64,000 nucleotides of DNA. It comes from Trypanosoma brucei (lineage: Eukaryota). Below, piece after piece: positions 1 through 21,338 of this stretch. Every line of letters begins with the position of its first letter. The stretch's first letter is position 1. The notes beneath the pieces were generated by a model. It was not told the DNA's origin. It searched no databases and saw nothing but the letters and a program-made list of their open reading frames with translations. The DNA lies in the NCBI GenBank assembly GCA_000002445.1, contig CP000071.1, positions 288,001 to 352,000 of the forward strand, read 5' to 3'. Both the position numbers and the translations under genes were made by a program.

Positions 1-516
1 CGTACCGTTAAGGGAATCGGAAGACACGCTTTCAGCAGCTCCCTTGCATTTTTCAGCCGCGCTCCTGACTCTCCAATTGGAATTGTGTCCTGCCACCTCC
101 TTCAACATGCGCTCTAACGCTGCTATACGATTGCTCCTGATCTCTTCAATATTCTCCGCCCTAAACTCAGTCTCAATGGATGCGGTTTCAGCTTTCTTGG
201 CGGCCTCAGTAACGTTGGAAGCAACACGCTTCGCACGCTCGACGGGATCGGTGGCATTTCTGTTCTCCCACAAGACATCCTCAGCCAAAGTTACATATTC
301 ATCACTCCGAGTCTTGGCATTCGATATCTTCAATGATTCGGTAGTTATCCAATATTTTAGGTCACGGACGGCATCTTTCAGTCCCCTGAACTGCTTCAGA
401 GCATTACACAATGTAACAGTTTGCTCAAGTGTAAGATTATTGTTCTTACCAACAGCAAATGGCATGCACAGGAGTACAACTGCTGTGAAACAGGTGAATC
501 GCGTCATTTGGCTCAA
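1..516 (-). CDS. Gene B copy 0, 5' part only (N-terminal ~172 codons). The gene continues to the left beyond the window. Product is an Ala-rich, GPI-anchored surface-protein family member.
   Basis: Reverse strand of 1..516 is near-identical to 10427..10943, the B1 N-terminus including the signal peptide MSQMTRFTCFTAVVLLCMPFAVG. The ATG lies at 516..514. Confidence 0.7.
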   Translation of the reverse strand, partial: MSQMTRFTCFTAVVLLCMPFAVGKNNNLTLEQTVTLCNALKQFRGLKDAVRDLKYWITTESLKISNAKTRSDEYVTLAEDVLWENRNATDPVERAKRVASNVTEAAKKAETASIETEFRAENIEEIRSNRIAALERMLKEVAGHNSNWRVRSAAEKCKGAAESVSSDSLNGT

Positions 517-555
517 CTCTCTCTTGGATGTGGAAATCTTGGAATGATGTTTCGT

Positions 556-588
556 CTACAAAATGGTAAGGAAAGATAGCAACAAAAG
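556..588 (-). promoter_or_regulatory. Polypyrimidine tract plus candidate AG spliced-leader acceptor upstream of the gene B start. The same element recurs at ~10983..11015 and ~21378..21410.
   Basis: The minus-strand sequence cttttgttgctatctttccttacc is followed by attttgtAG about 40 nt upstream of the ATG at 516. This is the typical kinetoplastid trans-splicing signal arrangement. This is inference; there is no RNA evidence. Confidence 0.35.
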
Positions 589-900
589 TTGATACTATGC
601 ATGAAATGACACGGAGAAAATGAGACCAACTGGAAGCCATAATTAGTCACTTATGCACAAGGCACAACATCTTTACGGAAAACACAACTAAAGTCGTTGA
701 CATACATGGACTACACAACACAGAAGCAGTGATGTATATGACAGTATGCCTCAGTCACACTTCCATATGTGCATGCACGCTCATAAGCATTGCCAACTTT
801 CTTGTTGTTCGTATCTTATCCATTCATAAAACATCCCCAACAGAGTGGCATCCATTGACAGCATGCGGTAATAAGTGCCTCCAGCAGCTGTCAGACAAGA

Positions 901-3900
901 TTAGTTGTGCGACGAATCACATGAGAGAGAAACATTGCTTTCCTCATCGTGATTGGGATACGCCTGCGCTTCGTCGACGGATGCCGCATGCGGATTATGA
1001 AAAGGTGGTGTGTCGTATACAGGCAGCACAGTGACTCCTTCACCGTCAACATGGGTGTGCCCGCTGTAATTTATAGTGTCTCTGCCACGAGTCGCAGTTG
1101 AGTTGAAGGGAAGCACAACGGCTTGGGGTAGTGGTAGAGGAATCGAGCGCATGGCCTGCTGCAAACGGACATAATCACTAAACTCGGCATCAACTATCGC
1201 CTGCCACTCCTCTTCCTCCCAGTTCACGAGCCGCATACGCCGCCCAGCCTCGCTTTCAAGCATAAACGTCGACTCCTCGTAGAAGTGCTGTGTAGTGGTG
1301 TAACTCATCATGTCATAACTCGTGAGCCGCGACGTATCATGAACGTCCGTCGACATCTCTGACATGGTATCATGAACGGAAACCTCGATTTCCTCACGTG
1401 TTTGCGATTGCAAGCGCCGACGCTGTGAGGCACGCCTCATATAAATGGCATTCAGCAGGTCCGGGTGATCTGCCGGTACAGTCACAGGTATTGGATTGAC
1501 ATTCACACCCCTGCCAGTCGGACCCTCATACATGCTGAATTCTCCACTGTAGTCAAATTGTAGTTCCAGTTCCTTTGCATCCACGCGGATACGCTCAATA
1601 CCGTCTGTAAAGACAAGCGCCATGTTGTAGCGGTCCCTCGCCTCCTGTAATGCGATCTGATCACGATCATCACACTCTTGCTCCTCGACAGAAGTCCAGT
1701 CCGCCCTCCCAGGAAAGTCACCGCCCCACGCAAAGTCGTCAACACCCGATGTCATGCCATCGATCATCGTCCTCGCGGTGGTATTGGTATTGGGGGAACC
1801 ATCACCAGAGTAGAACCCCAGAAGCAGTGGGTTGTTACCGCTTTCCAAATATTCGGGGTCGGGAGATGTTCCACTGATACAAGACATGTCGAGATTGTCC
1901 AGCTGCATCTTATCTGCAACGACAAGTTGTCGCTCCTCCTTCTCCTTAGAGCAGCATCGTCGCAAAAAGCACACGGCAAGCAACAACAGCAGCAGAAACA
2001 GCAACACAGCTGCCACAATAATGGCAATCACCGCCCCCATTCCCAATGGACCCCAAGCAGACCCACCACATATATCCCCACTTGCCTTCACATTACCCAA
2101 AGTAACGCAGTAGGTATTGTCTGTGAGGTCCCATGCGCAAACACTGAACTCCGTGCCCGCGGGGTAGTCTCTAATTTTGTTGTGGTTCATCCTCAACTTA
2201 CACTTGCCATCTGAGCCCTCACTGGCTTCCCCGACGGTGACGCCCTTGTCAGTGGGGTTGCAACAGTCACCCTTGATCACACGCACAACCGTCTGGCGGT
2301 GGGAAGAGTCCGGTGCACGGCACGACTCGAGTGGTGTCACCTTACAAGGTTCCACTATCGAAGGAAATACACTGACGGGTGGAATGAAGCGGAGGCTAGA
2401 GCTCAAAGGGACACTGACGACTGAACGGTTGACAGGAGTGGTAGCGCAGAAATATATCGAGTCCGTACCATTTTGCGCGGTAACAGAAACACGGCGGGCG
2501 CTTGCCGCGTCATCATCACCCACCAGTGCCCAACTTCCATGTGATTCATTTCGACGCAGGCAACTTCTGTCTGTGCTAAAACCGGGAAGCAAGCTCTCAG
2601 CATACAGGTCGTCCATCAAGTACAGAACGCCAGGAACACCAAGAAGGACGTCTCTCCCACGAATATTGTAATACGTAGGGTCAAATGTCTCAATCTGCGC
2701 AATCGGGAGGAGCTGCTTTGCCGAAGCAACACGTGCTGCTATCCCATTAGCGCTTATTTTCACAATTTTGGGACGCGTCGCACTGCCGTCAAAAACCTCC
2801 TGGCAGAGCGTCCACACACCCGCGGATGGTAACCCGGCCGCATTCACGTTCTTGAACGATATATTACCACGCGCCTCCTCGTCAGTCGTAAAGAATGGCA
2901 CCACGTCCTCACCACCACAGGAAGCATCTCGCCGCAGACGAAATGCTGAGTTTGGCGACAGAGGAATGTACACCTCTGCCTCCGTCCCCAGAACAAATGA
3001 CGACGGAAAGATGATATCAGTAGAAACCTCCACTTCCGATACAACACTGAGGTTCCCGGCGGGGGTCCCAACGCACAACGACACGGAAGGCAACCTCCCT
3101 GGAATGAAGGTCGGACCCAGTACAACGCTGCCGCTCGGCCGCACGTAACCCACAGAGTTCCCCGTCAGAGTGGTTGCGCACGCATTTTCGGAGAGATATA
3201 CGCCACGAAAGTCGGAGTTGTGTAGATACGCAAGTGGGTTCTCTGCGTCTTCCCCGGGCACTAACGAGTACAATGGCTTTGCTCCAGAGACCACAGGTGT
3301 CTGCAGTTTTGCGTGAAACCGAGCAGTGGGAACCGCCGCAGGATCGATCTTCTTCACGATGGGCGGAGTTATGATGAGAACCTCCGCTACTGGTATTGGA
3401 GGCGAGGTGGGTTGTTCCCCCAATACACATACACATTTCACGCCTGAGATACCTATTAGCGTAACCGCCTCCTCAACTGGGGTCTCTGCAAGACCGGGGG
3501 CCGCCACAATCTTCTCGCCACACACCGCGCAATCGCTTAGGTACGTGTCCGGTGTTCGGGTAGCGTAGTTCATCACTAAGTTCGCAGGCCCTAGCACCTC
3601 GCTGTCGCTATCCACACGTCCATGAATGCTAGGGTTCACAACACGGAAGTTTTCCACTGAAAGCGTCGGGCCATCTGTTGTGAAGACATACCCAGGATCC
3701 CTTATTGTGTGTGTACACACATAAAACGTAAGATTCCGATTGTACCGTGGCGTCATTGTGGCTCTGCTCTGACTAAGTACTCCATTGCAGTCACTCCTTG
3801 TGGAAAGAAAGGGACTGGTAAGGATCGCCTTGTCAATGCCATAGTCGGTTACTTGTTTCGCTGGAAGCGCCGTCACCGGCCGTACCGCAGGCTGCTTTCC

Positions 3901-6900
3901 ACCGGGGCATTCATCTAAGTGAATCAGTTGCATAGTCCCACGCATAACATACCCACCGCTTTCCCCACGCTCACAATAGTACACATCTGTCAGATCACGG
4001 TTCCGGTATTTGCACTTATCCACATGCAGCGTTGACATAGAGTTGGCTATGACCGTGTCGTACTCACTCAAGATACTGTCAGTACACGCTTCTAAGGTGG
4101 AGATCCTCACCCTCCCACTTTGAATGCCACTGGACTCCACGGTCACACTGCGACCTGCAATAATCGTCGCAGGAGTCATGTAGTGAAAAATATTGAAAGT
4201 AGATGCAGGCAACTTATCATACGCAGAAATACCGACACACACCCTGGCACCCTTCGCCACAGCTGGCGTCTTCACAATGGTAACATCCTTACTGTGTTCG
4301 CCGGAAGCAAAGGGAAAACTGTCATACGAAGCATTCGCCTCTGTGCAGTTAAGCTCTGGGGGGACAATGTAAACGGTGAGATTCGACGCCCCTATATGCA
4401 AGCTACCCCCATCAAGGGTCAAGCGAAGAGGTGTGTGCTTCCGTACGAGTGACACATTAAAGGACGCCGTAAACGGGTTAATCACCTTAAGGGGCTTCTG
4501 ACCAACAGCAACTCCCAAACGCCGCTCATCCTGCTGACACAATGCATATTCGCCTAGTAGAACATCCTCCAAGGGAGTAGTTGGCCCAGTGTAGTAGCGC
4601 TCAGTCGCCTCCTCACAAATCCTTGCATTCAGTGGGACTTTGCAGGAAGCGGCGTTGACACAGCGCACGAGGAACAAAGATGCCTTCTTAAGCAGCGGTC
4701 TTGCCACAAAATTATTCGTTGACCTACGGACAGCGTACAGAGAATCCACAGCAAAATCCTCAGCACTTACCTTCCCTCCGTACAAGTAATACGATTCATT
4801 GGTATCACCCCACCCCACGCAAACATGCAGTTCGCCAGCCTTCTGAACCACAAAAGGTTCTGCACTCCCACTTATGGGGTCAACCCAACCCTCACCGTAC
4901 ACCCTAATGCCACCACCGGGGGCACTTTGGCACGACTCAATGCTCTCGCTCACAAGAAAGCGTGTTGGCTGCAGCGCAGTCAGCGCCTCTCCTCGAAACC
5001 TCATGCTGAGGGGAAGACCAACAACGCCAATAGGTGAATCCGGCACAAGCTCTAGCTGCTGCTGTGACTGAATTAAACCTACATCTTCGTATCCATTCCC
5101 CTTCCACAGGCATACCTTCCATTTCTTCATACCAACAGCTGTGTAGACCACATACGCCGGACCCACTTCAGTAATTCTAATAGCAACGGCAGTACCATCA
5201 TCCACAATTTCGCCACAGTTCACATCACTCGTTTCCTTAAAAAGCACCTTCAGACCTTTGAGGGAGGTCTTATCAGGTACAATAAAATTGACTCGATTGC
5301 TTACGCCAACGAACACGGTCCTGGGGAATACCTCCACATCGGAAACAGCTAACATACCCGATACCCTCACTTTCCAGGCACCCCCATCACTGTCATGGTA
5401 ACCAACACATACGTACACCTTGCCAACTGTGTTGCGCATCACCGTCACGGACGCCTCCCCTTCAGCCGTTGCATTTACCTCAGAAATGGATGGTGTGCAG
5501 CTCTCACTTTCACTGAACACTATGGGCGCCTCAGGCGGTACGGCGGACACCTTGACGGGTGTACTGACACCTTTTACAATGGAAGCCGGCGACAACTCCG
5601 CAGGACCGTATACCATGACATTCCCAACGTTCGAATAGGGGCGATTCACAGGATGTTCCGTGCCCGGTGTCTTCACACACAGCACATGTCTACCCGCAGT
5701 AGAAAACGCAACGCCGTACAGGGCAGTTGCATTCATGGAGTATGTCTCCCCGACTGGTGTAAGGCAATTATCCAGGGAGAAATACCCGGTTGTTCCTGCC
5801 TTGAGAGTCACGTTGGCATCAAGATGAATCGTCTCAGCCACACCCACGAAAAGGGTCCGGTGTTTCAGTTTGTATCGCCGCGTCGCAATATTCTTCACAG
5901 GGTAGGTATATCCCTCGTCAGGTTCCTCGTCCGCTTGTAGGTCGACAGATGAGGGAGTCGCGACACACAAAGTCATGTTCGGGAGTGCGTCCTCAGGAAC
6001 TCGAAACGTGACAGAACTTGCGCCAACTCTCACATCACCTTTTGAGTTGAGTTCCTCACACTCCGGGGTTACCGATAAACCAACCGTTATCACACCACTC
6101 CGCCCCGCATTGTGGCCGCTCAACAAAACCGTCAAATCAAGTCCACTGATCACGTTGGCTTCATCAAATGATACCGTCGGTGGCGGCAGAACTGTCACAA
6201 CAGCCGCACGCGCCTTGGGGTATGCAGTCGTGCTCCCCTCAAGACACGCGTAGTACGTACCTGAAACAGGTAAGGCAACTGCACCCCCATCCGAACGCGA
6301 GCGACGCTTCTTTACTGGGGGGCCCCGATATTGGATTCCTGATGGACCATCCACACGCACAGCCCCTGTACAGTTGGAATACATGTAGAAATCAAGCACC
6401 AACTTCACATCGTTAGCAGCTGCAGTCGCTGCATCCATTGTATACTTAATGCGAGTCCCGTACCCACTGTATAGGGTCCGTGGCTGAACGCCGTACTCCC
6501 GAACAGTTACCTTGTTCTCAGATGGTGAATATAACCTGCCACCCTTGTGGTAGGGCCAACCATTACACAGAAAATAGTCACCTTTAGGCACAGAAACCTC
6601 CATATTAACAACCTGCAACGTTTCCCCACCCACGGGGTCCTGAAGGATCGGATCACATAGGGGTGACTGAGAAAAAGTTGCCCACACGAGGTTGCCTACA
6701 GCCTCCAAGCGAAATGTTTCGTTCGTGTGCCGAAGTGCATCAGTGTTGTTCGTGTCATAACGTGGCACAGCAAGTAACACAGAGGCAGGAACGACGAAAG
6801 TTTTGCCATCACTCGTGGGTACCTTAGCACAAAGATAAATTACGCTTTGGACACTCCGTGTCACTCTCACCTCCCGGTTAGAACCCAGTTCGGCAGGTGG

Positions 6901-7494
6901 CAGACCTTGAATCATGCTCACGTCGTCACAGTTTTCATTGCGGTGAAATGTAATGAAGGTTCCAACAGGCACTGCGTCGCCGAATCGAATAGTGTTGTCA
7001 ACATCACGTTTCAAATAGCGTGGTATGGCTTCAACAAGGCTCAGCTGCACAGACAAAGAAAGGGAGGGAAACGCATCACCAGCACATATATACACTTCAC
7101 GTACTTTCGTATCGTACCACGGGTCAATGCCCACATCATTGCTCGTAACCGTGAAATTACATGGCGCATTCTTGGATATTTTGCACTTGGAGCCAATGAT
7201 CTGTGTATTGTCACATGTACTCATACGCGAAACGAAAATATCTGCTTTGATACTCTGGTCCGTCGTTTCCACACTGAACGGTACGTTCACCAGCGGTTTG
7301 TTAGGTCGTAACACAAGTGATGCAGCTCCACTGCTGCATAAAAACGTTGACGACACGATGCACAGAACTGAAGCCCAAAAAGTAAAGGGCACCTTACAGC
7401 AATGTCGGTAACGTGGAGATAGAGAGGAAGCATGGCTGGTACCTGTGCCACAGTGGGTTGAGTCCCTTCTTAGAAACATTTGCATAAATACCAA
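901..7494 (-). CDS. Gene A copy 1: a 2197-aa type I transmembrane glycoprotein. It has an N-terminal hydrophobic signal region and ~1800 aa of ectodomain made of ~18 tandem ~95-aa Cys-containing modules. There is one TM helix (GAVIAIIVAAVLLFLLLLLLAVCFL) and a ~375-aa acidic cytoplasmic tail.
   Basis: A 6.6-kb uninterrupted ORF. The motif h-[YHF]-h-C-[VA]-G/T recurs at ~90-100 aa spacing, for example VYICAGDAF, IYLCAKVPTSDG, TLCVATPSS, VYVCVGYHDSDG, LHVCVGWGDTNE, ARVCVGISAYD, FYVCTHTIRDPG, SLCVGTPAGN and IYFCATTPVNRS. There are many N-x-S/T sequons. I recognised no enzyme motif. Confidence 0.85.
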   Translation of the reverse strand: MVFMQMFLRRDSTHCGTGTSHASSLSPRYRHCCKVPFTFWASVLCIVSSTFLCSSGAASLVLRPNKPLVNVPFSVETTDQSIKADIFVSRMSTCDNTQIIGSKCKISKNAPCNFTVTSNDVGIDPWYDTKVREVYICAGDAFPSLSLSVQLSLVEAIPRYLKRDVDNTIRFGDAVPVGTFITFHRNENCDDVSMIQGLPPAELGSNREVRVTRSVQSVIYLCAKVPTSDGKTFVVPASVLLAVPRYDTNNTDALRHTNETFRLEAVGNLVWATFSQSPLCDPILQDPVGGETLQVVNMEVSVPKGDYFLCNGWPYHKGGRLYSPSENKVTVREYGVQPRTLYSGYGTRIKYTMDAATAAANDVKLVLDFYMYSNCTGAVRVDGPSGIQYRGPPVKKRRSRSDGGAVALPVSGTYYACLEGSTTAYPKARAAVVTVLPPPTVSFDEANVISGLDLTVLLSGHNAGRSGVITVGLSVTPECEELNSKGDVRVGASSVTFRVPEDALPNMTLCVATPSSVDLQADEEPDEGYTYPVKNIATRRYKLKHRTLFVGVAETIHLDANVTLKAGTTGYFSLDNCLTPVGETYSMNATALYGVAFSTAGRHVLCVKTPGTEHPVNRPYSNVGNVMVYGPAELSPASIVKGVSTPVKVSAVPPEAPIVFSESESCTPSISEVNATAEGEASVTVMRNTVGKVYVCVGYHDSDGGAWKVRVSGMLAVSDVEVFPRTVFVGVSNRVNFIVPDKTSLKGLKVLFKETSDVNCGEIVDDGTAVAIRITEVGPAYVVYTAVGMKKWKVCLWKGNGYEDVGLIQSQQQLELVPDSPIGVVGLPLSMRFRGEALTALQPTRFLVSESIESCQSAPGGGIRVYGEGWVDPISGSAEPFVVQKAGELHVCVGWGDTNESYYLYGGKVSAEDFAVDSLYAVRRSTNNFVARPLLKKASLFLVRCVNAASCKVPLNARICEEATERYYTGPTTPLEDVLLGEYALCQQDERRLGVAVGQKPLKVINPFTASFNVSLVRKHTPLRLTLDGGSLHIGASNLTVYIVPPELNCTEANASYDSFPFASGEHSKDVTIVKTPAVAKGARVCVGISAYDKLPASTFNIFHYMTPATIIAGRSVTVESSGIQSGRVRISTLEACTDSILSEYDTVIANSMSTLHVDKCKYRNRDLTDVYYCERGESGGYVMRGTMQLIHLDECPGGKQPAVRPVTALPAKQVTDYGIDKAILTSPFLSTRSDCNGVLSQSRATMTPRYNRNLTFYVCTHTIRDPGYVFTTDGPTLSVENFRVVNPSIHGRVDSDSEVLGPANLVMNYATRTPDTYLSDCAVCGEKIVAAPGLAETPVEEAVTLIGISGVKCVCVLGEQPTSPPIPVAEVLIITPPIVKKIDPAAVPTARFHAKLQTPVVSGAKPLYSLVPGEDAENPLAYLHNSDFRGVYLSENACATTLTGNSVGYVRPSGSVVLGPTFIPGRLPSVSLCVGTPAGNLSVVSEVEVSTDIIFPSSFVLGTEAEVYIPLSPNSAFRLRRDASCGGEDVVPFFTTDEEARGNISFKNVNAAGLPSAGVWTLCQEVFDGSATRPKIVKISANGIAARVASAKQLLPIAQIETFDPTYYNIRGRDVLLGVPGVLYLMDDLYAESLLPGFSTDRSCLRRNESHGSWALVGDDDAASARRVSVTAQNGTDSIYFCATTPVNRSVVSVPLSSSLRFIPPVSVFPSIVEPCKVTPLESCRAPDSSHRQTVVRVIKGDCCNPTDKGVTVGEASEGSDGKCKLRMNHNKIRDYPAGTEFSVCAWDLTDNTYCVTLGNVKASGDICGGSAWGPLGMGAVIAIIVAAVLLFLLLLLLAVCFLRRCCSKEKEERQLVVADKMQLDNLDMSCISGTSPDPEYLESGNNPLLLGFYSGDGSPNTNTTARTMIDGMTSGVDDFAWGGDFPGRADWTSVEEQECDDRDQIALQEARDRYNMALVFTDGIERIRVDAKELELQFDYSGEFSMYEGPTGRGVNVNPIPVTVPADHPDLLNAIYMRRASQRRRLQSQTREEIEVSVHDTMSEMSTDVHDTSRLTSYDMMSYTTTQHFYEESTFMLESEAGRRMRLVNWEEEEWQAIVDAEFSDYVRLQQAMRSIPLPLPQAVVLPFNSTATRGRDTINYSGHTHVDGEGVTVLPVYDTPPFHNPHAASVDEAQAYPNHDEESNVSLSCDSSHN

Positions 7495-9521
7495 ACGCTA
7501 CAACAACCTTCTCAGTACTCGCTTATTCCCTTTCTCTCAACGTGTATGCCTTTATGCTCTTGCAGAAAACTATTTACGGTGTGCGTATTCGCCAACCCGC
7601 GTAAACCTAAGACGATTGTGCACAGACTCCTCTGTCTCTGTCTCTCACACTAGTTCCTTACCACGCGACCCGTTTAAGAGGGAAGTGGCTAAACTATGTA
7701 AGGTGCTTATGGAATTACTACGGTACTGACCTTCACTTATCTTCGTGTACTCCGTTTAACTTTCAATTGCCCCTCCGCAGTGATGAACTCTTTTGTTTGA
7801 TTTCTTCTATGGTTGCTTCTATCCTCAGTTACTATGAAGATACAGCTGTATCTATTACCTCCGTTACTCGACAAAAATGTTTCCCCGGTGAAAAAGGGAT
7901 GTGCCTCTATGGATATACAAATGTATGAGTCCACAAATGTATGGATATGCAGGTGTAGAAAATATGCGACCCTACACGTACAGCTTTTCTATGTAACGTC
8001 CTGTTGAAATGGTCCTCGTTTACTCTTATTTGTGCTTTCTCGTATCGTTGTCGATCTCCTTCCCGTTCCACAACAGACTTTTCTCGCAATATCGCTCGCC
8101 TGTGTATCGGTAAATCAATTCACAAAACACCTTTATGGTAGGAACGGTATATCAAACTGATGAATATTTAGTGTGCGAAGCTTGAGGCTACGCTACTGAT
8201 CAATGCGGACAACACGTCGGGCAGAAAACTACAGAAACTAAAACAAAAGGGCTAAAAATGCGGTAAAAAAATCTATAAACCTATGTAAATGATGGTAGCG
8301 ATATATTGTCAGAGCTGCTTCGCGAAACAGAAATGGCAACTGAATGGCTAACTAAAAAAAACAAAAAAGATCTAGCAGTAATATCGCGCTGCTTCTGCAC
8401 AACGTCTAAAGTGTGATGCACGGAAAGGAAGTAGTTTTTCAAGAGAAGTGCACACAAAATGGTAAGCACATGGGTGAGGAATGCGCTCCATAGACATCAA
8501 TGAATAAACCCCGCGCACACAAGCAAGTGAAACGACATATCAAAAGAAGTTACAATGCAACACTTAAAGAGTACAACATGTGCTGGTGAAGTAACAAAAC
8601 CCACACATTCACTTTTTAAAAATGGTCAAAAGATATAATGCCCCTGAATTTATTAAGAAGAGGTGGGCATCAGGGTAGCACAGGCGGATACAACTCCAGG
8701 CCAAGAGGGCAACAAAGACATATGAACTGCAAGTGCAAACAATTACTATAATGTTTTACATTTAGCAACCGACACACTATAAATGACCACAAGGGACTTT
8801 AACATGTCCCCGATAGATCCACCCACAATCGCTAAACGAAGTAATTCAAGCGAGCACATAAACTCACGGCAACATTCCAAGCGTAGCAAACACAATGTAG
8901 TGGAGAGCAGACGTACAGCACCTGGAAGGCGCCATCTCAAACTCGGTACTCACTAATACATACCACACAGCTGCACAGTTCAGTCATATAATGAACATTA
9001 AACGGTTATATATATAATAACTGCTACAATAAGGAAAAAAAGGGAGGGGGGAAAGGGAAGCAATTATGAAGTCAAGACTAAATTAATACTTTACATACAC
9101 AGCAGAGAATTGCACAATCTGTAAAGCGCTCACACATGTAAGTATACACAAGAAGGAGTAAACACTAAAATGAAAACACGGATGAAAATAATGAAGAAAC
9201 GCTAACGCACCTGCTCACCAACACAACATAGCAGTCTACATTGCTGTATATGTGATGTGCATAAAATGTCGAGAAACTAGGAACAAACACTAAATAAAGG
9301 TACCAGAATAGCCATGCCGATACTTTAAAAGAAAAAAAGAATTTATAAAAAAATATATTAGGATCATGATTAGCATATAAAAGTGAAAACGCTATTGAAA
9401 ACAATGGCAACGATAAAACCATAACGAGAAGCCTTAAGTAACACCCAACAATGACACGTTTGCGTGTATGTAATCCCTCACGCTAATCCTTGGCTGCTAC
9501 ACCGAAACGGTACTACTTGGA

Positions 9522-10943
9522 CTACAAAAGACCAACTAATGTGAAAGTAAGGGAAAATAATAATAAGCGTAAATTGTGGTTCTTATTGCTTGCTGCACTT
9601 CCCATTGAAGACAAACGACCTTCACCAAACTCGATCAGAGAAGCAACTCCAGCCACCTCCATCGTTTTATTCAGTTTGACCTCTTTTCTCCGCACGGCAA
9701 TGCTGGCAATAGTAATCAGCTGTGTGGATGTATTCAGATCTTCAAGCATATGAGAGACCACACGTGTGTCACTCTCCAGTCGCTCCGAGAGATTTGGAAA
9801 GTTGTCCATAAGTTTCTTCCTCATATCATCCAGAGATTTGGGTGTCACCACCCAAGCTGTTCCCCCGCACACCTCAGCAGCCTTCTTTGCTTTCTCATCT
9901 GCAGCATTTCCAGCTATCTTCCTTAGCGTATTTTCCATGAGTGGTAGGTAATGAGCCCTTATACTTTTGAGATTCCTTGCATACCTGCTTACCTTCTTAA
10001 ACACATTCTGTGCTTTACTTACTGCTTTCGCAACCTCAGCAACGGCCCGCTTCACCTGATCCATGTGTCCCCCCGGACGCTTTGCATCCGCTTGGCTCCG
10101 TTCCTCCACTTTAGAAACCATTGCAGAACGGCTCACAGCTTGCTCCGTGAATGCGTCCACTGCACCTTTTAGGCCTCTGTACTGCTCAACCATCAAACAC
10201 ACTGCTTGTGTCTGATTCAGAGTAAGATTGTACTTTCTGGTGATAGAGGCCTTTGTTCCCTCGACCAGTTCCTTCACCGTAGACTCACCTTTGAGCGCCA
10301 CCGACCTCCAAGTAACGACATTGTAGAGCACAAACTCCAGCTTCCACAGCTCCCCGGAACTTTCCCGGGTGTCATCCTCCAAACCTTCCGAAGCACCCTC
10401 AGGTAACGTACTAAACAACTCCAACAGCGTACCGTTAAGGGAATCGGAAGACACGCTTTCAGCAGCTCCCTTGCATTTTTCAGCCGCGCTCCTGACTCTC
10501 CAATTGGAATTGTGTCCTGCCACCTCCTTCAACATGCGCTCTAACGCTGCTACACGATTGCTCCTGATCTCTTCAATATTCTCCGCCCTAAACTCAGTCT
10601 CAATGGATGCGGTTTCAGCTTTCTTGGCGGCCTCAGTAACGTTGGAAGCAACACGCTTCGCACGCTCGACGGGATCGGTGGCATTTCTGTTCTCCCACAA
10701 GACATCCTCAGCCAAAGTTACATATTCATCACTCCGAGTCTTGGCATTCGATATCTTCAATGATTCGGTAGTTATCCAATATTTTAGGTCACGGACGGCA
10801 TCTTTCAGTCCCCTGAACTGCTTCAGAGCATTACACAATGTAACAGTTTGCTCAAGTGTAAGATTATTGTTCTTACCAACAGCAAATGGCATGCACAGGA
10901 GTACAACTGCTGTGAAACAGGTGAATCGTGTCATTTGGCTCAA
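9522..10943 (-). CDS. Gene B copy 1: a 473-aa Ala/Lys/Glu-rich secreted glycoprotein with a predicted C-terminal GPI-anchor signal (…SAASNKNHNLRLLLFSLTFTLVGLL). It consists of two homologous ~205-aa halves.
   Basis: There is an N-terminal signal peptide and at least 7 N-x-T sequons. The internal repeat NLTLEQTVTLCNALKQFRGLKDAV (res 27-50) pairs with NLTLNQTQAVCLMVEQYRGLKGAV (res 239-262). SLNGTLLELFSTLPEGASEGLEDDTR (~res 167-192) pairs with SLDDMRKKLMDNFPNLSERLESDTR (~res 371-395). The composition suggests a helical-bundle fold like the trypanosome VSG/HpHbR/GARP-type surface proteins, but that is inference only. Confidence 0.8.
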   Translation of the reverse strand: MSQMTRFTCFTAVVLLCMPFAVGKNNNLTLEQTVTLCNALKQFRGLKDAVRDLKYWITTESLKISNAKTRSDEYVTLAEDVLWENRNATDPVERAKRVASNVTEAAKKAETASIETEFRAENIEEIRSNRVAALERMLKEVAGHNSNWRVRSAAEKCKGAAESVSSDSLNGTLLELFSTLPEGASEGLEDDTRESSGELWKLEFVLYNVVTWRSVALKGESTVKELVEGTKASITRKYNLTLNQTQAVCLMVEQYRGLKGAVDAFTEQAVSRSAMVSKVEERSQADAKRPGGHMDQVKRAVAEVAKAVSKAQNVFKKVSRYARNLKSIRAHYLPLMENTLRKIAGNAADEKAKKAAEVCGGTAWVVTPKSLDDMRKKLMDNFPNLSERLESDTRVVSHMLEDLNTSTQLITIASIAVRRKEVKLNKTMEVAGVASLIEFGEGRLSSMGSAASNKNHNLRLLLFSLTFTLVGLL

Positions 10944-11327
10944 CTCTCTCTTGGATGTGGAAATCTTGGAATGATGTTTCGTCTACAAAATGGTAAGGAA
11001 AGATAGCAACAAAAGTTGATACTATGCATGAAATGACACGGAGAAAAGGAGACCAACTGGAAGCCATAATTAGTCACTTATGCACAAGGCACAACATCTT
11101 TACGGAAAACACAACTAAAGTCGTTGACATACATGGACTACACAACACAGAAGCAGTGATGTATATGACAGTATGCCTCAGTCACACTTCCATATGTGCA
11201 TGCACGCTCATAAGCATTGCCAACTTTCTTGTTGTTCGTATCTTATCCATTCATAAAACATCCCCAACAGAGTGGCATCCATTGACAGCATGCGGTAATA
11301 AGTGCCTCCAGCAGCTGTCAGACAAGA

Positions 11328-14300
11328 TTAGTTGTGCGACGAATCACATGAGAGAGAAACATTGCTTTCCTCATCGTGATTGGGATACGCCTGCGCTTCG
11401 TCGACGGATGCCGCATGCGGATTATGAAAAGGTGGTGTGTCGTATACAGGCAGCACAGTGACTCCTTCACCGTCAACATGGGTGTGCCCGCTGTAATTTA
11501 TAGTGTCTCTGCCACGAGTCGCAGTTGAGTTGAAGGGAAGCACAACGGCTTGGGGTAGTGGTAGAGGAATCGAGCGCATGGCCTGCTGCAAACGGACATA
11601 ATCACTAAACTCGGCATCAACTATCGCCTGCCACTCCTCTTCCTCCCAGTTCACGAGCCGCATACGCCGCCCAGCCTCGCTTTCAAGCATAAACGTCGAC
11701 TCCTCGTAGAAGTGCTGTGTAGTGGTGTAACTCATCATGTCATAACTCGTGAGCCGCGACGTATCATGAACGTCCGTCGACATCTCTGACATGGTATCAT
11801 GAACGGAAACCTCGATTTCCTCACGTGTTTGCGATTGCAAGCGCCGACGCTGTGAGGCACGCCTCATATAAATGGCATTCAGCAGGTCCGGGTGATCTGC
11901 CGGTACAGTCACAGGTATTGGATTGACATTCACACCCCTGCCAGTCGGACCCTCATACATGCTGAATTCTCCACTGTAGTCAAATTGTAGTTCCAGTTCC
12001 TTTGCATCCACGCGGATACGCTCAATACCGTCTGTAAAGACAAGCGCCATGTTGTAGCGGTCCCTCGCCTCCTGTAATGCGATCTGATCACGATCATCAC
12101 ACTCTTGCTCCTCGACAGAAGTCCAGTCCGCCCTCCCAGGAAAGTCACCGCCCCACGCAAAGTCGTCAACACCCGATGTCATGCCATCGATCATCGTCCT
12201 CGCGGTGGTATTGGTATTGGGGGAACCATCACCAGAGTAGAACCCCAGAAGCAGTGGGTTGTTACCGCTTTCCAAATATTCGGGGTCGGGAGATGTTCCA
12301 CTGATACAAGACATGTCGAGATTGTCCAGCTGCATCTTATCTGCAACGACAAGTTGTCGCTCCTCCTTCTCCTTAGAGCAGCATCGTCGCAAAAAGCACA
12401 CGGCAAGCAACAACAGCAGCAGAAACAGCAACACAGCTGCCACAATAATGGCAATCACCGCCCCCATTCCCAATGGACCCCAAGCAGACCCACCACATAT
12501 ATCCCCACTTGCCTTCACATTACCCAAAGTAACGCAGTAGGTATTGTCTGTGAGGTCCCATGCGCAAACACTGAACTCCGTGCCCGCGGGGTAGTCTCTA
12601 ATTTTGTTGTGGTTCATCCTCAACTTACACTTGCCATCTGAGCCCTCACTGGCTTCCCCGACGGTGACGCCCTTGTCAGTGGGGTTGCAGCAGTCACCCT
12701 TGATCACACGCACAACCGTCTGGCGGTGGGAAGAGTCCGGTGCACGGCACGACTCGAGTGGTGTCACCTTACAAGGTTCCACTATCGAAGGAAATACACT
12801 GACGGGTGGAATGAAGCGGAGGCTAGAGCTCAAAGGGACACTGACGACTGAACGGTTGACAGGAGTGGTAGCGCAGAAATATATCGAGTCCGTACCATTT
12901 TGCGCGGTAACAGAAACACGGCGGGCGCTTGCCGCGTCATCATCACCCACCAGTGCCCAACTTCCATGTGATTCATTTCGACGCAGGCAACTTCTGTCTG
13001 TGCTAAAACCGGGAAGCAAGCTCTCAGCATACAGGTCGTCCATCAAGTACAGAACGCCAGGAACACCAAGAAGGACGTCTCTCCCACGAATATTGTAATA
13101 CGTAGGGTCAAATGTCTCAATCTGCGCAATCGGGAGGAGCTGCTTTGCCGAAGCAACACGTGCTGCTATCCCATTAGCGCTTATTTTCACAATTTTGGGA
13201 CGCGTCGCACTGCCGTCAAAAACCTCCTGGCAGAGCGTCCACACACCCGCGGATGGTAACCCGGCCGCATTCACGTTCTTGAACGATATATTACCACGCG
13301 CCTCCTCGTCAGTCGTAAAGAATGGCACCACGTCCTCACCACCACAGGAAGCATCTCGCCGCAGACGAAATGCTGAGTTTGGCGACAGAGGAATGTACAC
13401 CTCTGCCTCCGTCCCCAGAACAAATGACGACGGAAAGATGATATCAGTAGAAACCTCCACTTCCGATACAACACTGAGGTTCCCGGCGGGGGTCCCAACG
13501 CACAACGACACGGAAGGCAACCTCCCTGGAATGAAGGTCGGACCCAGTACAACGCTGCCGCTCGGCCGCACGTAACCCACAGAGTTCCCCGTCAGAGTGG
13601 TTGCGCACGCATTTTCGGAGAGATATACGCCACGAAAGTCGGAGTTGTGTAGATACGCAAGTGGGTTCTCTGCGTCTTCCCCGGGCACTAACGAGTACAA
13701 TGGCTTTGCTCCAGAGACCACAGGTGTCTGCAGTTTTGCGTGAAACCGAGCAGTGGGAACCGCCGCAGGATCGATCTTCTTCACGATGGGCGGAGTTATG
13801 ATGAGAACCTCCGCTACTGGTATTGGAGGCGAGGTGGGTTGTTCCCCCAATACACATACACATTTCACGCCTGAGATACCTATTAGCGTAACCGCCTCCT
13901 CAACTGGGGTCTCTGCAAGACCGGGGGCCGCCACAATCTTCTCGCCACACACCGCGCAATCGCTTAGGTACGTGTCCGGTGTTCGGGTAGCGTAGTTCAT
14001 CACTAAGTTCGCAGGCCCTAGCACCTCGCTGTCGCTATCCACACGTCCATGAATGCTAGGGTTCACAACACGGAAGTTTTCCACTGAAAGCGTCGGGCCA
14101 TCTGTTGTGAAGACATACCCAGGATCCCTTATTGTGTGTGTACACACATAAAACGTAAGATTCCGATTGTACCGTGGCGTCATTGTGGCTCTGCTCTGAC
14201 TAAGTACTCCATTGCAGTCACTCCTTGTGGAAAGAAAGGGACTGGTAAGGATCGCCTTGTCAATGCCATAGTCGGTTACTTGTTTCGCTGGAAGCGCCGT

Positions 14301-17300
14301 CACCGGCCGTACCGCAGGCTGCTTTCCACCGGGGCATTCATCTAAGTGAATCAGTTGCATAGTCCCACGCATAACATACCCACCGCTTTCCCCACGCTCA
14401 CAATAGTACACATCTGTCAGATCACGGTTCCGGTATTTGCACTTATCCACATGCAGCGTTGACATAGAGTTGGCTATGACCGTGTCGTACTCACTCAAGA
14501 TACTGTCAGTACACGCTTCTAAGGTGGAGATCCTCACCCTCCCACTTTGAATGCCACTGGACTCCACGGTCACACTGCGACCTGCAATAATCGTCGCAGG
14601 AGTCATGTAGTGAAAAATATTGAAAGTAGATGCAGGCAACTTATCATACGCAGAAATACCGACACACACCCTGGCACCCTTCGCCACAGCTGGCGTCTTC
14701 ACAATGGTAACATCCTTACTGTGTTCGCCGGAAGCAAAGGGAAAACTGTCATACGAAGCATTCGCCTCTGTGCAGTTAAGCTCTGGGGGGACAATGTAAA
14801 CGGTGAGATTCGACGCCCCTATATGCAAGCTACCCCCATCAAGGGTCAAGCGAAGAGGTGTGTGCTTCCGTACGAGTGACACATTAAAGGACGCCGTAAA
14901 CGGGTTAATCACCTTAAGGGGCTTCTGACCAACAGCAACTCCCAAACGCCGCTCATCCTGCTGACACAATGCATATTCGCCTAGTAGAACATCCTCCAAG
15001 GGAGTAGTTGGCCCAGTGTAGTAGCGCTCAGTCGCCTCCTCACAAATCCTTGCATTCAGTGGGACTTTGCAGGAAGCGGCGTTGACACAGCGCACGAGGA
15101 ACAAAGATGCCTTCTTAAGCAGCGGTCTTGCCACAAAATTATTCGTTGACCTACGGACAGCGTACAGAGAATCCACAGCAAAATCCTCAGCACTTACCTT
15201 CCCTCCGTACAAGTAATACGATTCATTGGTATCACCCCACCCCACGCAAACATGCAGTTCGCCAGCCTTCTGAACCACAAAAGGTTCTGCACTCCCACTT
15301 ATGGGGTCAACCCAACCCTCACCGTACACCCTAATGCCACCACCGGGGGCACTTTGGCACGACTCAATGCTCTCGCTCACAAGAAAGCGTGTTGGCTGCA
15401 GCGCAGTCAGCGCCTCTCCTCGAAACCTCATGCTGAGGGGAAGACCAACAACGCCAATAGGTGAATCCGGCACAAGCTCTAGCTGCTGCTGTGACTGAAT
15501 TAAACCTACATCTTCGTATCCATTCCCCTTCCACAGGCATACCTTCCATTTCTTCATACCAACAGCTGTGTAGACCACATACGCCGGACCCACTTCAGTA
15601 ATTCTAATAGCAACGGCAGTACCATCATCCACAATTTCGCCACAGTTCACATCACTCGTTTCCTTAAAAAGCACCTTCAGACCTTTGAGGGAGGTCTTAT
15701 CAGGTACAATAAAATTGACTCGATTGCTTACGCCAACGAACACGGTCCTGGGGAATACCTCCACATCGGAAACAGCTAACATACCCGATACCCTCACTTT
15801 CCAGGCACCCCCATCACTGTCATGGTAACCAACACATACGTACACCTTGCCAACTGTGTTGCGCATCACCGTCACGGACGCCTCCCCTTCAGCCGTTGCA
15901 TTTACCTCAGAAATGGATGGTGTGCAGCTCTCACTTTCACTGAACACTATGGGCGCCTCAGGCGGTACGGCGGACACCTTGACGGGTGTACTGACACCTT
16001 TTACAATGGAAGCCGGCGACAACTCCGCAGGACCGTATACCATGACATTCCCAACGTTCGAATAGGGGCGATTCACAGGATGTTCCGTGCCCGGTGTCTT
16101 CACACACAGCACATGTCTACCCGCAGTAGAAAACGCAACGCCGTACAGGGCAGTTGCATTCATGGAGTATGTCTCCCCGACTGGTGTAAGGCAATTATCC
16201 AGGGAGAAATACCCGGTTGTTCCTGCCTTGAGAGTCACGTTGGCATCAAGATGAATCGTCTCAGCCACACCCACGAAAAGGGTCCGGTGTTTCAGTTTGT
16301 ATCGCCGCGTCGCAATATTCTTCACAGGGTAGGTATATCCCTCGTCAGGTTCCTCGTCCGCTTGTAGGTCGACAGATGAGGGAGTCGCGACACACAAAGT
16401 CATGTTCGGGAGTGCGTCCTCAGGAACTCGAAACGTGACAGAACTTGCGCCAACTCTCACATCACCTTTTGAGTTGAGTTCCTCACACTCCGGGGTTACC
16501 GATAAACCAACCGTTATCACACCACTCCGCCCCGCATTGTGGCCGCTCAACAAAACCGTCAAATCAAGTCCACTGATCACGTTGGCTTCATCAAATGATA
16601 CCGTCGGTGGCGGCAGAACTGTCACAACAGCCGCACGCGCCTTGGGGTATGCAGTCGTGCTCCCCTCAAGACACGCGTAGTACGTACCTGAAACAGGTAA
16701 GGCAACTGCACCCCCATCCGAACGCGAGCGACGCTTCTTTACTGGGGGGCCCCGATATTGGATTCCTGATGGACCATCCACACGCACAGCCCCTGTACAG
16801 TTGGAATACATGTAGAAATCAAGCACCAACTTCACATCGTTAGCAGCTGCAGTCGCTGCATCCATTGTATACTTAATGCGAGTCCCGTACCCACTGTATA
16901 GGGTCCGTGGCTGAACGCCGTACTCCCGAACAGTTACCTTGTTCTCAGATGGTGAATATAACCTGCCACCCTTGTGGTAGGGCCAACCATTACACAGAAA
17001 ATAGTCACCTTTAGGCACAGAAACCTCCATATTAACAACCTGCAACGTTTCCCCACCCACGGGGTCCTGAAGGATCGGATCACATATGGGTGACTGAGAA
17101 AAAGTTGCCCACACGAGGTTGCCTACAGCCTCCAAGCGAAATGTTTCGTTCGTGTGCCGAAGTGCATCAGTGTTGTTCGTGTCATAACGTGGCACAGCAA
17201 GTAACACAGAGGCAGGAACGACGAAAGTTTTGCCATCACTCGTGGGTACCTTAGCACAAAGATAAATTACGCTTTGGACACTCCGTGTCACTCTCACCTC

Positions 17301-17921
17301 CCGGTTAGAACCCAGTTCGGCAGGTGGCAGACCTTGAATCATGCTCACGTCGTCACAGTTTTCATTGCGGTGAAATGTAATGAAGGTTCCAACAGGCACT
17401 GCGTCGCCGAATCGAATAGTGTTGTCAACATCACGTTTCAAATAGCGTGGTATGGCTTCAACAAGGCTCAGCTGCACAGACAAAGAAAGGGAGGGAAACG
17501 CATCACCAGCACATATATACACTTCACGTACTTTCGTATCGTACCACGGGTCAATGCCCACATCATTGCTCGTAACCGTGAAATTACATGGCGCATTCTT
17601 GGATATTTTGCACTTGGAGCCAATGATCTGTGTATTGTCACATGTACTCATACGCGAAACGAAAATATCTGCTTTGATACTCTGGTCCGTCGTTTCCACA
17701 CTGAACGGTACGTTCACCAGCGGTTTGTTAGGTCGTAACACAAGTGATGCAGCTCCACTGCTGCATAAAAACGTTGACGACACGATGCACAGAACTGAAG
17801 CCCAAAAAGTAAAGGGCACCTTACAGCAATGTCGGTAACGTGGAGATAGAGAGGAAGCATGGCTGGTACCTGTGCCACAGTGGGTTGAGTCCCTTCTTAG
17901 AAACATTTGCATAAATACCAA
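11328..17921 (-). CDS. Gene A copy 2: a 2197-aa type I transmembrane modular surface protein. It differs from copy 1 by one residue (SPLCDPIL versus SPICDPIL).
   Basis: The ORF is identical in length and frame to 901..7494 at an offset of 10427. Confidence 0.85.
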   Translation of the reverse strand: MVFMQMFLRRDSTHCGTGTSHASSLSPRYRHCCKVPFTFWASVLCIVSSTFLCSSGAASLVLRPNKPLVNVPFSVETTDQSIKADIFVSRMSTCDNTQIIGSKCKISKNAPCNFTVTSNDVGIDPWYDTKVREVYICAGDAFPSLSLSVQLSLVEAIPRYLKRDVDNTIRFGDAVPVGTFITFHRNENCDDVSMIQGLPPAELGSNREVRVTRSVQSVIYLCAKVPTSDGKTFVVPASVLLAVPRYDTNNTDALRHTNETFRLEAVGNLVWATFSQSPICDPILQDPVGGETLQVVNMEVSVPKGDYFLCNGWPYHKGGRLYSPSENKVTVREYGVQPRTLYSGYGTRIKYTMDAATAAANDVKLVLDFYMYSNCTGAVRVDGPSGIQYRGPPVKKRRSRSDGGAVALPVSGTYYACLEGSTTAYPKARAAVVTVLPPPTVSFDEANVISGLDLTVLLSGHNAGRSGVITVGLSVTPECEELNSKGDVRVGASSVTFRVPEDALPNMTLCVATPSSVDLQADEEPDEGYTYPVKNIATRRYKLKHRTLFVGVAETIHLDANVTLKAGTTGYFSLDNCLTPVGETYSMNATALYGVAFSTAGRHVLCVKTPGTEHPVNRPYSNVGNVMVYGPAELSPASIVKGVSTPVKVSAVPPEAPIVFSESESCTPSISEVNATAEGEASVTVMRNTVGKVYVCVGYHDSDGGAWKVRVSGMLAVSDVEVFPRTVFVGVSNRVNFIVPDKTSLKGLKVLFKETSDVNCGEIVDDGTAVAIRITEVGPAYVVYTAVGMKKWKVCLWKGNGYEDVGLIQSQQQLELVPDSPIGVVGLPLSMRFRGEALTALQPTRFLVSESIESCQSAPGGGIRVYGEGWVDPISGSAEPFVVQKAGELHVCVGWGDTNESYYLYGGKVSAEDFAVDSLYAVRRSTNNFVARPLLKKASLFLVRCVNAASCKVPLNARICEEATERYYTGPTTPLEDVLLGEYALCQQDERRLGVAVGQKPLKVINPFTASFNVSLVRKHTPLRLTLDGGSLHIGASNLTVYIVPPELNCTEANASYDSFPFASGEHSKDVTIVKTPAVAKGARVCVGISAYDKLPASTFNIFHYMTPATIIAGRSVTVESSGIQSGRVRISTLEACTDSILSEYDTVIANSMSTLHVDKCKYRNRDLTDVYYCERGESGGYVMRGTMQLIHLDECPGGKQPAVRPVTALPAKQVTDYGIDKAILTSPFLSTRSDCNGVLSQSRATMTPRYNRNLTFYVCTHTIRDPGYVFTTDGPTLSVENFRVVNPSIHGRVDSDSEVLGPANLVMNYATRTPDTYLSDCAVCGEKIVAAPGLAETPVEEAVTLIGISGVKCVCVLGEQPTSPPIPVAEVLIITPPIVKKIDPAAVPTARFHAKLQTPVVSGAKPLYSLVPGEDAENPLAYLHNSDFRGVYLSENACATTLTGNSVGYVRPSGSVVLGPTFIPGRLPSVSLCVGTPAGNLSVVSEVEVSTDIIFPSSFVLGTEAEVYIPLSPNSAFRLRRDASCGGEDVVPFFTTDEEARGNISFKNVNAAGLPSAGVWTLCQEVFDGSATRPKIVKISANGIAARVASAKQLLPIAQIETFDPTYYNIRGRDVLLGVPGVLYLMDDLYAESLLPGFSTDRSCLRRNESHGSWALVGDDDAASARRVSVTAQNGTDSIYFCATTPVNRSVVSVPLSSSLRFIPPVSVFPSIVEPCKVTPLESCRAPDSSHRQTVVRVIKGDCCNPTDKGVTVGEASEGSDGKCKLRMNHNKIRDYPAGTEFSVCAWDLTDNTYCVTLGNVKASGDICGGSAWGPLGMGAVIAIIVAAVLLFLLLLLLAVCFLRRCCSKEKEERQLVVADKMQLDNLDMSCISGTSPDPEYLESGNNPLLLGFYSGDGSPNTNTTARTMIDGMTSGVDDFAWGGDFPGRADWTSVEEQECDDRDQIALQEARDRYNMALVFTDGIERIRVDAKELELQFDYSGEFSMYEGPTGRGVNVNPIPVTVPADHPDLLNAIYMRRASQRRRLQSQTREEIEVSVHDTMSEMSTDVHDTSRLTSYDMMSYTTTQHFYEESTFMLESEAGRRMRLVNWEEEEWQAIVDAEFSDYVRLQQAMRSIPLPLPQAVVLPFNSTATRGRDTINYSGHTHVDGEGVTVLPVYDTPPFHNPHAASVDEAQAYPNHDEESNVSLSCDSSHN

Positions 17922-19949: not shown

Positions 19950-21338
19950 CTACAAAAGACCAGTTCCTAGCAAACACACCAGAAAAGACGCAAATGCTAT
20001 GGGTGTAGTAGTAGGAGAGTAGTCGGTCTCTCGGTTTAATTTTAATTCGGCAGCTTGAGCGTACTGCATCGCGGCATTGAGTTGTTTGTATTCCCTGTGG
20101 AGAATAGTAAGACTTTCGATCAATTTCGCCGTATCTTTTTTTAGTCTTTTGGAAGATTGGGCGGGAATGCTGTGGAAAAGCCCATTTTTTGTGTCCTCCA
20201 GAGATTTAGGTGTTACAACCTCGGCCGTCTCTCTGCATGCCTCAGCAGCCTTCCTTGTTGCTTGTGAGGCGGCGTATTGAGAAATCGACAAGAGTGTTTT
20301 TTCAAGGGAACCTGCATATGCGGCTGCAACAGATTTCATATAAACCGAGTGACCTGTTAAAGCTCGATACGCTTTTTCCGCCGCCTCGGCAGCTTCCGCA
20401 ATTTCATTAACAGTCTCCCTCACCCGCTGCGACAAGAGCTTGCCTTTGCCATCCTCATTTGCCTCTTCCGCGAGCTGAACAACATTATCACTCCTTATTT
20501 TAGCATCAGCAGCCTTTTGGGCCATGGTCTTGGAAATTTCTTCAATGTTGCTGACAAAAATGGGTAGTGCCCTGTACTGTTCAGCGGCAATACACAATGC
20601 TTGTGTCTGTTGTAGTGTGAGATTGTACCTCTTTCCGTATGCAGACACAGCTTTTGTAACAGCTTCCCGAACCCTAAACTCAGTATATTCCGCATTTATT
20701 TTTATTTCGACAAGGGATTGGGCTGCGCCCTCGAGTTTGTGGAGTTTGTTGGAAGCGTCGCGGGTAGCTTCCTTCAACCTCTTAATCGACTTCGCAGGGA
20801 AATATTGCAACATATCGTCCAGCGCATGTATTAGAGATTCAACGGTCACATTTTTAGTGGTTTTGTTGCATGATTTTGCAACCCCTTTCACCTCTACAGT
20901 TCCTCCTTCGTTCCCTAACTTCTTCAATGCACCCTCAAGCGAGGGTACGTAGGCGCTACTGATGGTTCCAAGAACTCCGGCATCAACATCAGATTCCAAA
21001 ATCACAATTTCCGCTTTTTTAACGGCCTCAGTAACGTTGGCAGCAAGAACTCTGGCTCGTTTTTCTAGAGCCTTAGCCTTTGTGGTCGCCTGAGCGGGCT
21101 CTTTAACACGCCTCAACTGTTCATCACTCCGAGTCTTGGCATTCGATATCTTCAATGATTCGGTAGTTATCCAATATTTTAGGTCACGGACGGCATCTTT
21201 CAGTCCCCTGAACTGCTTCAGAGCATTACACAATGTAACAGTTTGCTCAAGTGTAAGATTATTGTTCTTACCAACAGCAAATGGCATGCACAGGAGTACA
21301 ACTGCTGTGAAACAGGTGAATCGCGTCATTTGGCTCAA
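19950..21338 (-). CDS. Gene B copy 2: a 462-aa paralogue of B1. The first 73 residues and last 3 residues plus the stop are identical, but the central ~385 codons are different. They are homologous but strongly diverged, and 11 codons shorter. It has a predicted GPI signal …TTTPIAFASFLVCLLGTGLL.
   Basis: The DNA is identical to B1 from the ATG (21338) down to 21120, then diverges over 19963..21119, then is identical again from 19962 through the stop and 3' flank. Internal two-half repeat is preserved (KRYNLTLQQTQALCIAAEQYRAL; SLIHALDDMLQYFPAKSIKRLKEATRD versus SLEDTKNGLFHSIPAQSSKRLKKDTAK). Confidence 0.8.
   Translation of the reverse strand: MSQMTRFTCFTAVVLLCMPFAVGKNNNLTLEQTVTLCNALKQFRGLKDAVRDLKYWITTESLKISNAKTRSDEQLRRVKEPAQATTKAKALEKRARVLAANVTEAVKKAEIVILESDVDAGVLGTISSAYVPSLEGALKKLGNEGGTVEVKGVAKSCNKTTKNVTVESLIHALDDMLQYFPAKSIKRLKEATRDASNKLHKLEGAAQSLVEIKINAEYTEFRVREAVTKAVSAYGKRYNLTLQQTQALCIAAEQYRALPIFVSNIEEISKTMAQKAADAKIRSDNVVQLAEEANEDGKGKLLSQRVRETVNEIAEAAEAAEKAYRALTGHSVYMKSVAAAYAGSLEKTLLSISQYAASQATRKAAEACRETAEVVTPKSLEDTKNGLFHSIPAQSSKRLKKDTAKLIESLTILHREYKQLNAAMQYAQAAELKLNRETDYSPTTTPIAFASFLVCLLGTGLL

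Follow-up and report, generated by a model that had tools for sequence, protein, structure and literature searches.

The minus-strand gene Tb927.8.950 of Trypanosoma brucei, located in the 64,000-nucleotide stretch analysed here (the window), most probably encodes a surface protein of salivary-gland stages: a member of Fam50 clade 'ii' with a signal peptide, two GARP bundles, and a GPI signal (probability about 0.8). The gene, its family, predicted anchor, expression, and 3HB-3HB architecture are all previously published, and no new kind of element was found. The additions made here are minor, namely a three-domain T. congolense ORF at a 212-residue period and the near-identical flanks that surround diverged cores in the gene array. 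The first-pass annotation, read from the sequence without tools, had reached the correct family. The features of the gene are as follows.

9522..10934, minus strand: complete CDS of Tb927.8.950, 470 aa plus the stop codon at 9522-9524 (exact match to AAZ12866/XP_846932)
10875..10934, minus strand: predicted signal peptide, residues 1-20 (MTRFTCFTAVVLLCMPFAVG, KNNN next; hydrophobic window at residues 1-21)
10296..10853, minus strand: GARP domain 1, residues 28-213, with Cys34 and Cys154 (PF16731 at 157 bits, AF2, alignment with 2Y44)
9696..10217, minus strand: GARP domain 2, residues 240-413, with Cys246 and Cys356 (PF16731 at 87.9 bits, AF2, half-versus-half alignment)
9525..9596, minus strand: predicted GPI-attachment signal, about residues 447-470 (hydropathy; published BigPI and FragAnchor positives)

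The minus-strand ORF was delimited as 9522..10943 by the ORF tool, which placed its start at a TTG (10943). This TTG was dropped in favour of the first ATG at 10934, the eukaryotic start, which yields 470 aa. The product was identical in sequence to 'hypothetical protein Tb927.8.950' from chromosome 8 of T. brucei brucei TREU927, and its UniProt entry (Q57XI0) is titled 'Trypanosoma glutamic acid/alanine-rich protein domain-containing protein'. Among T. b. gambiense proteins, two shared 98-99% identity with it. The plus-strand ORFs 9490..9753 and 10369..10974, which overlie the gene, were discarded as artefacts lying antisense to a minus-strand polycistron.

The VSG/HpHbR/GARP/BARP class of helical bundles had been proposed at first pass as a comparator, with membership left undecided. 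The Pfam GARP profile (PF16731; 193 positions, gathering score 27.4 bits) matched the whole protein in two stretches with E=3e-69 and 232.9 bits. When the halves were scored singly, the N-terminal half gave 157 bits (positions 2-188/193) and the C-terminal half 87.9 bits (positions 2-187/193). A PDB sequence search returned 2Y44, the T. congolense GARP, with E=3.5e-8 and 6XZ6 with E=1e-3. Fam50 proteins are characterised by a ubiquitous Cys that precedes a VTxxSL-type motif (Jackson 2013, PMC3605285), and Tb927.8.950 carries C34…QFR with C154…VSSDSL in domain 1 and C246…QYR with C356…VTPKSL in domain 2. These motif columns (C....Q[LFY]R in helix 1; Cys then VTxxSL-type) were conserved over 15 aligned domains. 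We regard GARP/Fam50 membership of Tb927.8.950 as established at the sequence level, and the GARP/BARP part of the proposed comparison therefore stands on the profile matches in both halves and the two PDB matches. The VSG part does not: neither the VSG-type N-terminal domain fold nor membership by sequence profile was found for Tb927.8.950, and the link to that superfamily is remote.

When 1.84 billion representatives were searched exhaustively with HMMER, nine proteins besides Tb927.8.950 were recovered, each a single-domain Fam50 protein from an African trypanosome: GARP, FHR, BARP, T. vivax BARP-like proteins, and Tb11.02.2370 with its ortholog in T. congolense. None of these 10 proteins is an annotated two-domain ortholog from outside Trypanozoon. 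Weak Pfam matches (DUF3450, DUF1664, BLOC1_2, and others) and a PDB match to an SMC coiled coil fell under the cut-offs and were set aside as coiled-coil or compositional noise.

Tb927.8.950 is internally duplicated, as the first-pass annotation had claimed. Residues 1-225 and 226-470 were joined by one collinear BLASTP alignment of 198 columns with 28% identity (E=8e-17), and the Smith-Waterman score between the halves was 194, compared with 36.8 +/- 6.6 (maximum 64) in 500 shuffles (z=23.9). The motifs picked out by eye lay in register in both halves, NLTLxQT..C....Q[FY]RGLK.AV at the start and C.....V[ST]..SL....LE.DTR near the end. The halves had been put at about 205 aa, a value that needs correction to a period of 212 residues (Cys34/Cys246, Cys154/Cys356). 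A neighbour-joining tree built from individual domains paired the first domains of Tb927.8.950 and its paralog Tb927.8.970 with a bootstrap of 100 and the second domains with 84. Since domain 1 pairs with domain 1 and domain 2 with domain 2, the duplication is older than both T. brucei isoforms.

Hydropathy exceeded 1.6 solely at residues 1-21 and 455-470, in agreement with the earlier reading that there is no membrane-spanning segment besides the terminal tail. At the N-terminus, A-V-G at the end of the predicted signal peptide would satisfy the -3/-1 cleavage rule. The C-terminus consists of small residues (SMGSAAS), a polar spacer (NKNHNLR), and a 14-residue hydrophobic end, LLLFSLTFTLVGLL, with nothing beyond. 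This is the layout of a GPI signal, in line with the GPI-type C-terminus noted at first pass, and the anchor itself is a prediction; the omega site probably falls within S446-S449. Nine N-x-S/T sequons, candidate sites read from sequence only, were counted versus 3.6 expected from shuffles (P=0.005). Two of them, N24-L-T and N236-L-T, lie at equivalent positions where the respective domains begin, and Tb927.8.970 retains both. The composition was A 10.9%, L 10.6%, E 8.9%, V 8.9%, and K 7.9%, and the description 'Ala/Lys/Glu-rich' is thus true only mildly.

The AF2 model of Tb927.8.950 had a mean pLDDT of 77.7 and a pTM of 0.50, and the other four of the five models reached about 50. The underlying alignment was shallow (5 sequences, effectively 2) because the word-indexed homolog searches gave only the query's own cluster. 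Two modules were predicted, each composed of helix, helix, small head, and helix. Module 1 has helices at 27-81, 83-138, and 183-235 with its head at 139-182; module 2 has helices at 239-284, 291-343, and 384-450 with its head at 344-383. The predicted fold is an elongated three-helix bundle with a small membrane-distal head, as in the GARP family. The pLDDT was below 50 across the signal-peptide region. The paralog Tb927.8.970 gave an identical helix layout, and its models were more consistent (62-78). Between helix 3 of domain 1 and helix 1 of domain 2 the model leaves a gap of three residues (N236-L-T), so that head-to-tail stacking would be the natural arrangement. Helix 3 of domain 1 terminates opposite the head of that domain, and domain 2 begins at its own head end (Cys246 with Cys356). 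This spacing and these helix ends are compatible with head-to-tail stacking in a model whose inter-domain geometry is, at a pTM of 0.50, a prediction.

The two-bundle layout differs from that of the named three-helix-bundle proteins. In GARP of T. congolense (2Y44) and BARP of T. brucei, both PF16731, a single bundle leads into an acidic or low-complexity tail, whereas Tb927.8.950 has two tandem bundles and no low-complexity tail. FHR (Tb927.5.4020, 6XZ6) and MISP (Tb927.7.360, 5VTL) are single bundles with approximately 21% sequence identity to Tb927.8.950. MISP carries a long disordered C-terminal stalk where Tb927.8.950 has its second bundle, and FHR binds factor H through a splayed head, whereas Tb927.8.950 has no known ligand. 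The three-helix-bundle receptors HpHbR and ISG65/ISG75 showed no significant sequence similarity to Tb927.8.950 and were not among the Pfam GARP relatives found; of these receptors, ISG65 and ISG75 span the membrane and belong to bloodstream forms.

The single T. congolense match that resembled Tb927.8.950 at the N-terminus was a fragment of 148 aa, and its contig, CAEQ01000427.1 (IL3000), was then scanned by tblastn. An unannotated 663-aa ORF was found at 452..2443 (+); three of its stretches match Pfam GARP, and its tail is GPI-like. The conserved Cys residues of the ORF, at 7, 219, and 431, give a 212-residue period, as in Tb927.8.950. The genes annotated at 227-700 and 1555-2175 of this contig lie on the strand opposite to the ORF and look spurious. 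The copy at 452..2443 is devoid of signal-peptide codons, and a second copy, from 3036 onward, is frameshifted in the draft assembly. This ORF is presumably a CESP gene (published CESP sequence: BAF91109). CESP, a Fam50 protein of T. congolense, resembles Tb927.8.950 in being predicted to be GPI-anchored and N-glycosylated and in belonging to tsetse epimastigote-type stages. The CESP-like ORF likewise shares the tandem GARP domains at the same period, but has three domains versus two in T. brucei, and domain-to-domain identity is 22-30%. The T. vivax relative has one GARP domain. Deeper nodes of the single-domain tree had bootstraps below 60, and the origins of the duplication in T. brucei and in T. 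congolense are not separable on it. The shared multi-domain layout and 212-residue period support the sister relationship of the T. brucei array to CESP.

Tb927.8.950 belongs to a tandem array (Tb927.8.930/.950/.970); its other members in the window and the genes interspersed among them are as follows.

1..507, minus strand: first 169 codons of Tb927.8.930, which continues past the window start (translation, unit alignment)
901..7485, minus strand: Tb927.8.940, twin of Tb927.8.960 (exact match to AAZ12865)
11328..17912, minus strand: Tb927.8.960, a 2194-aa gene in the 10.4-kb tandem unit (exact match to AAZ12867)
19950..21329, minus strand: paralog Tb927.8.970, 459 aa, two GARP domains (Pfam GARP E=1e-117 in two stretches; AF2)

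Successive 10.4-kb units were 99.93% identical over 9006 nt, and the part of Tb927.8.930 within the window differed from Tb927.8.950 by V128I. Tb927.8.970 showed 41% identity to Tb927.8.950 overall, with residues 1-70 identical. When the units of the latter two genes were compared (7495-11230 versus 17922-21625), identity was 99.6% over a segment that starts about 300 nt before the ATG and takes in the first 70 codons (210 nt of the CDS), and 99.85% from the last four codons (12 nt of the CDS) through the 3' UTR. The coding core between these flanks had approximately 41% protein identity, ranging from 10 to 53% per 30-residue window. Near-identical flanks around a diverged core thus point to recent homogenisation of the flanks and to two old versions of the ectodomain; the sequence pattern implies that gene conversion or unequal crossing-over acted on the flanks. 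An AT-rich, A-skewed stretch of about 2 kb lies 3' of each GARP-family gene (7495-9521 and 17922-19949; GC approximately 0.40, AT skew approximately +0.2). It is presumably a long 3' UTR, 99.85% conserved between units, and could carry stage-specific regulatory elements. Tb927.8.940 and Tb927.8.960, which alternate with the GARP-family genes, encode a 2194-aa single-pass membrane protein without a Pfam match, and Tb927.8.940 serves as the flagella connector marker FCP1 (PMC6529878).

The array has a published record. The products of Tb927.8.930, 950, and 970 were described as related to CESP (Fragoso et al. 2009, PMC2739429), and the chromosome-8 array was placed in Fam50 clade 'ii', sister to CESP (Jackson et al. 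2013, PMC3605285). For Tb927.8.930 and Tb927.8.950, a high-confidence GPI anchor (BigPI, FragAnchor), a signal peptide, and N-glycosylation were predicted (Savage et al. 2012, PMC3378594). Transcripts of Tb927.8.950 were salivary-gland-specific and were detected in metacyclics too (PMC3378594); Tb927.8.950 and Tb927.8.970 were up-regulated in salivary glands (Naguleswaran et al. 2021, PMC8483307). The salivary-gland transcript enrichment is modest, at least 2-fold by qRT-PCR (PMC3378594) and a log2FC of 1.5 (PMC8483307). In a screen for GPI-anchored receptors, Tb927.8.950 was entered as '3HB-3HB', Fam50 (Macleod et al. 2020, PMC7067766 Supplementary Table 1), an entry that equals the internally duplicated helical-bundle architecture read at first pass.

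From these data we propose the following model. As an N-glycosylated and GPI-anchored protein, Tb927.8.950 would most likely be exposed on the cell surface during the salivary-gland stages in tsetse, from epimastigotes to metacyclics. By the GARP fold, its N-terminus would be membrane-distal and held to the head by the conserved disulfide, and helix 3 would head back to the membrane. A single bundle was reported to be approximately 90 Å (~9 nm) long for FHR (PMC7067766), and a head-to-tail pair at ~90 Å per bundle would form a rod of about 18 nm. Domain 1 may be the membrane-distal working end, engaged in binding of a tsetse or host ligand or in adhesion, and domain 2 may act mainly as a spacer that raises domain 1 over the BARP or metacyclic-VSG coat. 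Such a role for the distal domain is suggested by analogy with CESP, for its attachment effect, and with FHR, HpHbR, and ISG65, which act as receptors. CESP was reported to promote attachment, a role that is based on attachment to plastic and is disputed (PMC10734937). An adhesion or receptor role of Tb927.8.950 is accordingly put forward here as tentative, with a chance short of even.

The main rival to this role is a passive one: Tb927.8.950 would serve only to build the epimastigote or metacyclic coat, as a 'filler' of the BARP/GARP type but longer, without a specific ligand, and the duplication would add size only. No ligand is known for the founding members, GARP and BARP, and MISP, a related family, is not needed in the fly, where its knock-down or knock-out gave no phenotype (PMC10089363). 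The strong divergence of the domains (28%) and isoforms (41%) would also be expected under weak constraint or immune-type diversification. However, the multi-domain layout is kept in both T. brucei isoforms and in the T. congolense relative at an identical period, the Cys pair and VTxxSL head motif are present in every domain, and FHR, HpHbR, and ISG65, which have the same fold, are specific receptors. We consider the filler role somewhat unlikely. The adhesion or receptor role can be extended into a joint reading, which is unlikely as a whole: GARP bundles would be stacked as a rigid rod, two in T. brucei (~18 nm) and three in T. congolense (~27 nm), putting a ligand-binding distal domain past the BARP or metacyclic-VSG coat, with a length fitted to the attachment site of each species (salivary gland versus proboscis), and the two diverged ectodomain 'cassettes' of the array (.930/.950 versus.970) inside gene-converted signal-peptide and UTR flanks would give two binding specificities or antigenic types.

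Two further alternatives concern the location of the protein. It might be released as a soluble factor into the salivary-gland lumen or saliva, as CESP was described from an epimastigote-conditioned supernatant (PMC10734937) and saliva of infected tsetse contains peptides of BARP and MISP (PMC10089363). Such soluble forms could come from GPI proteins that are shed, however, and Tb927.8.950 was not one of the GPI families reported from the infected-saliva proteome (BARP, mVSG, MISP; PMC10089363). With its canonical GPI-signal layout and two positive predictors (PMC3378594), a primarily soluble protein appears quite improbable. Hydrophobic C-termini can also be ambiguous, and the stretch in Tb927.8.950 might be a transmembrane or tail anchor, or the protein might be kept internally; the tail of Tb927.8.970 differs (…SPTTTPIAFASFLVCLLGTGLL), and this paralog does not appear in the quoted part of the high-confidence GPI table (PMC3378594). 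But the hydrophobic run of about 14 residues reaches the last residue, leaving no cytoplasmic tail, and is preceded by the small residues G-S-A-A-S and the polar spacer. The characterised Pfam-GARP relatives (GARP, BARP, FHR, and MISP) are moreover all GPI-anchored (PMC3605285, PMC10089363, PMC7067766). We give this last alternative very little weight and retain the GPI-anchored surface protein as the preferred reading.

Surface proteins of salivary-gland stages are candidate transmission-blocking antigens. We know of no T. brucei molecule as yet identified for colonisation of, or attachment to, the tsetse salivary gland. As CESP relatives, Tb927.8.950 and its paralogs are plausible candidates, an idea already present in the literature.

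The window belongs to the core of T. brucei chromosome 8: all its large ORFs lie on the minus strand, and upstream of the array are housekeeping genes. Their single-strand run at 23464-61941 therefore places the surface-protein array in a core polycistron, not in a subtelomere. The run (minus strand) includes genes for phosphoacetylglucosamine mutase, an RRM protein, a DnaJ protein, malonyl-CoA decarboxylase, and an EF-hand protein, as well as 6-phosphofructo-2-kinase/fructose-2,6-bisphosphatase-like and nucleotidyltransferase/TUTase-like genes.
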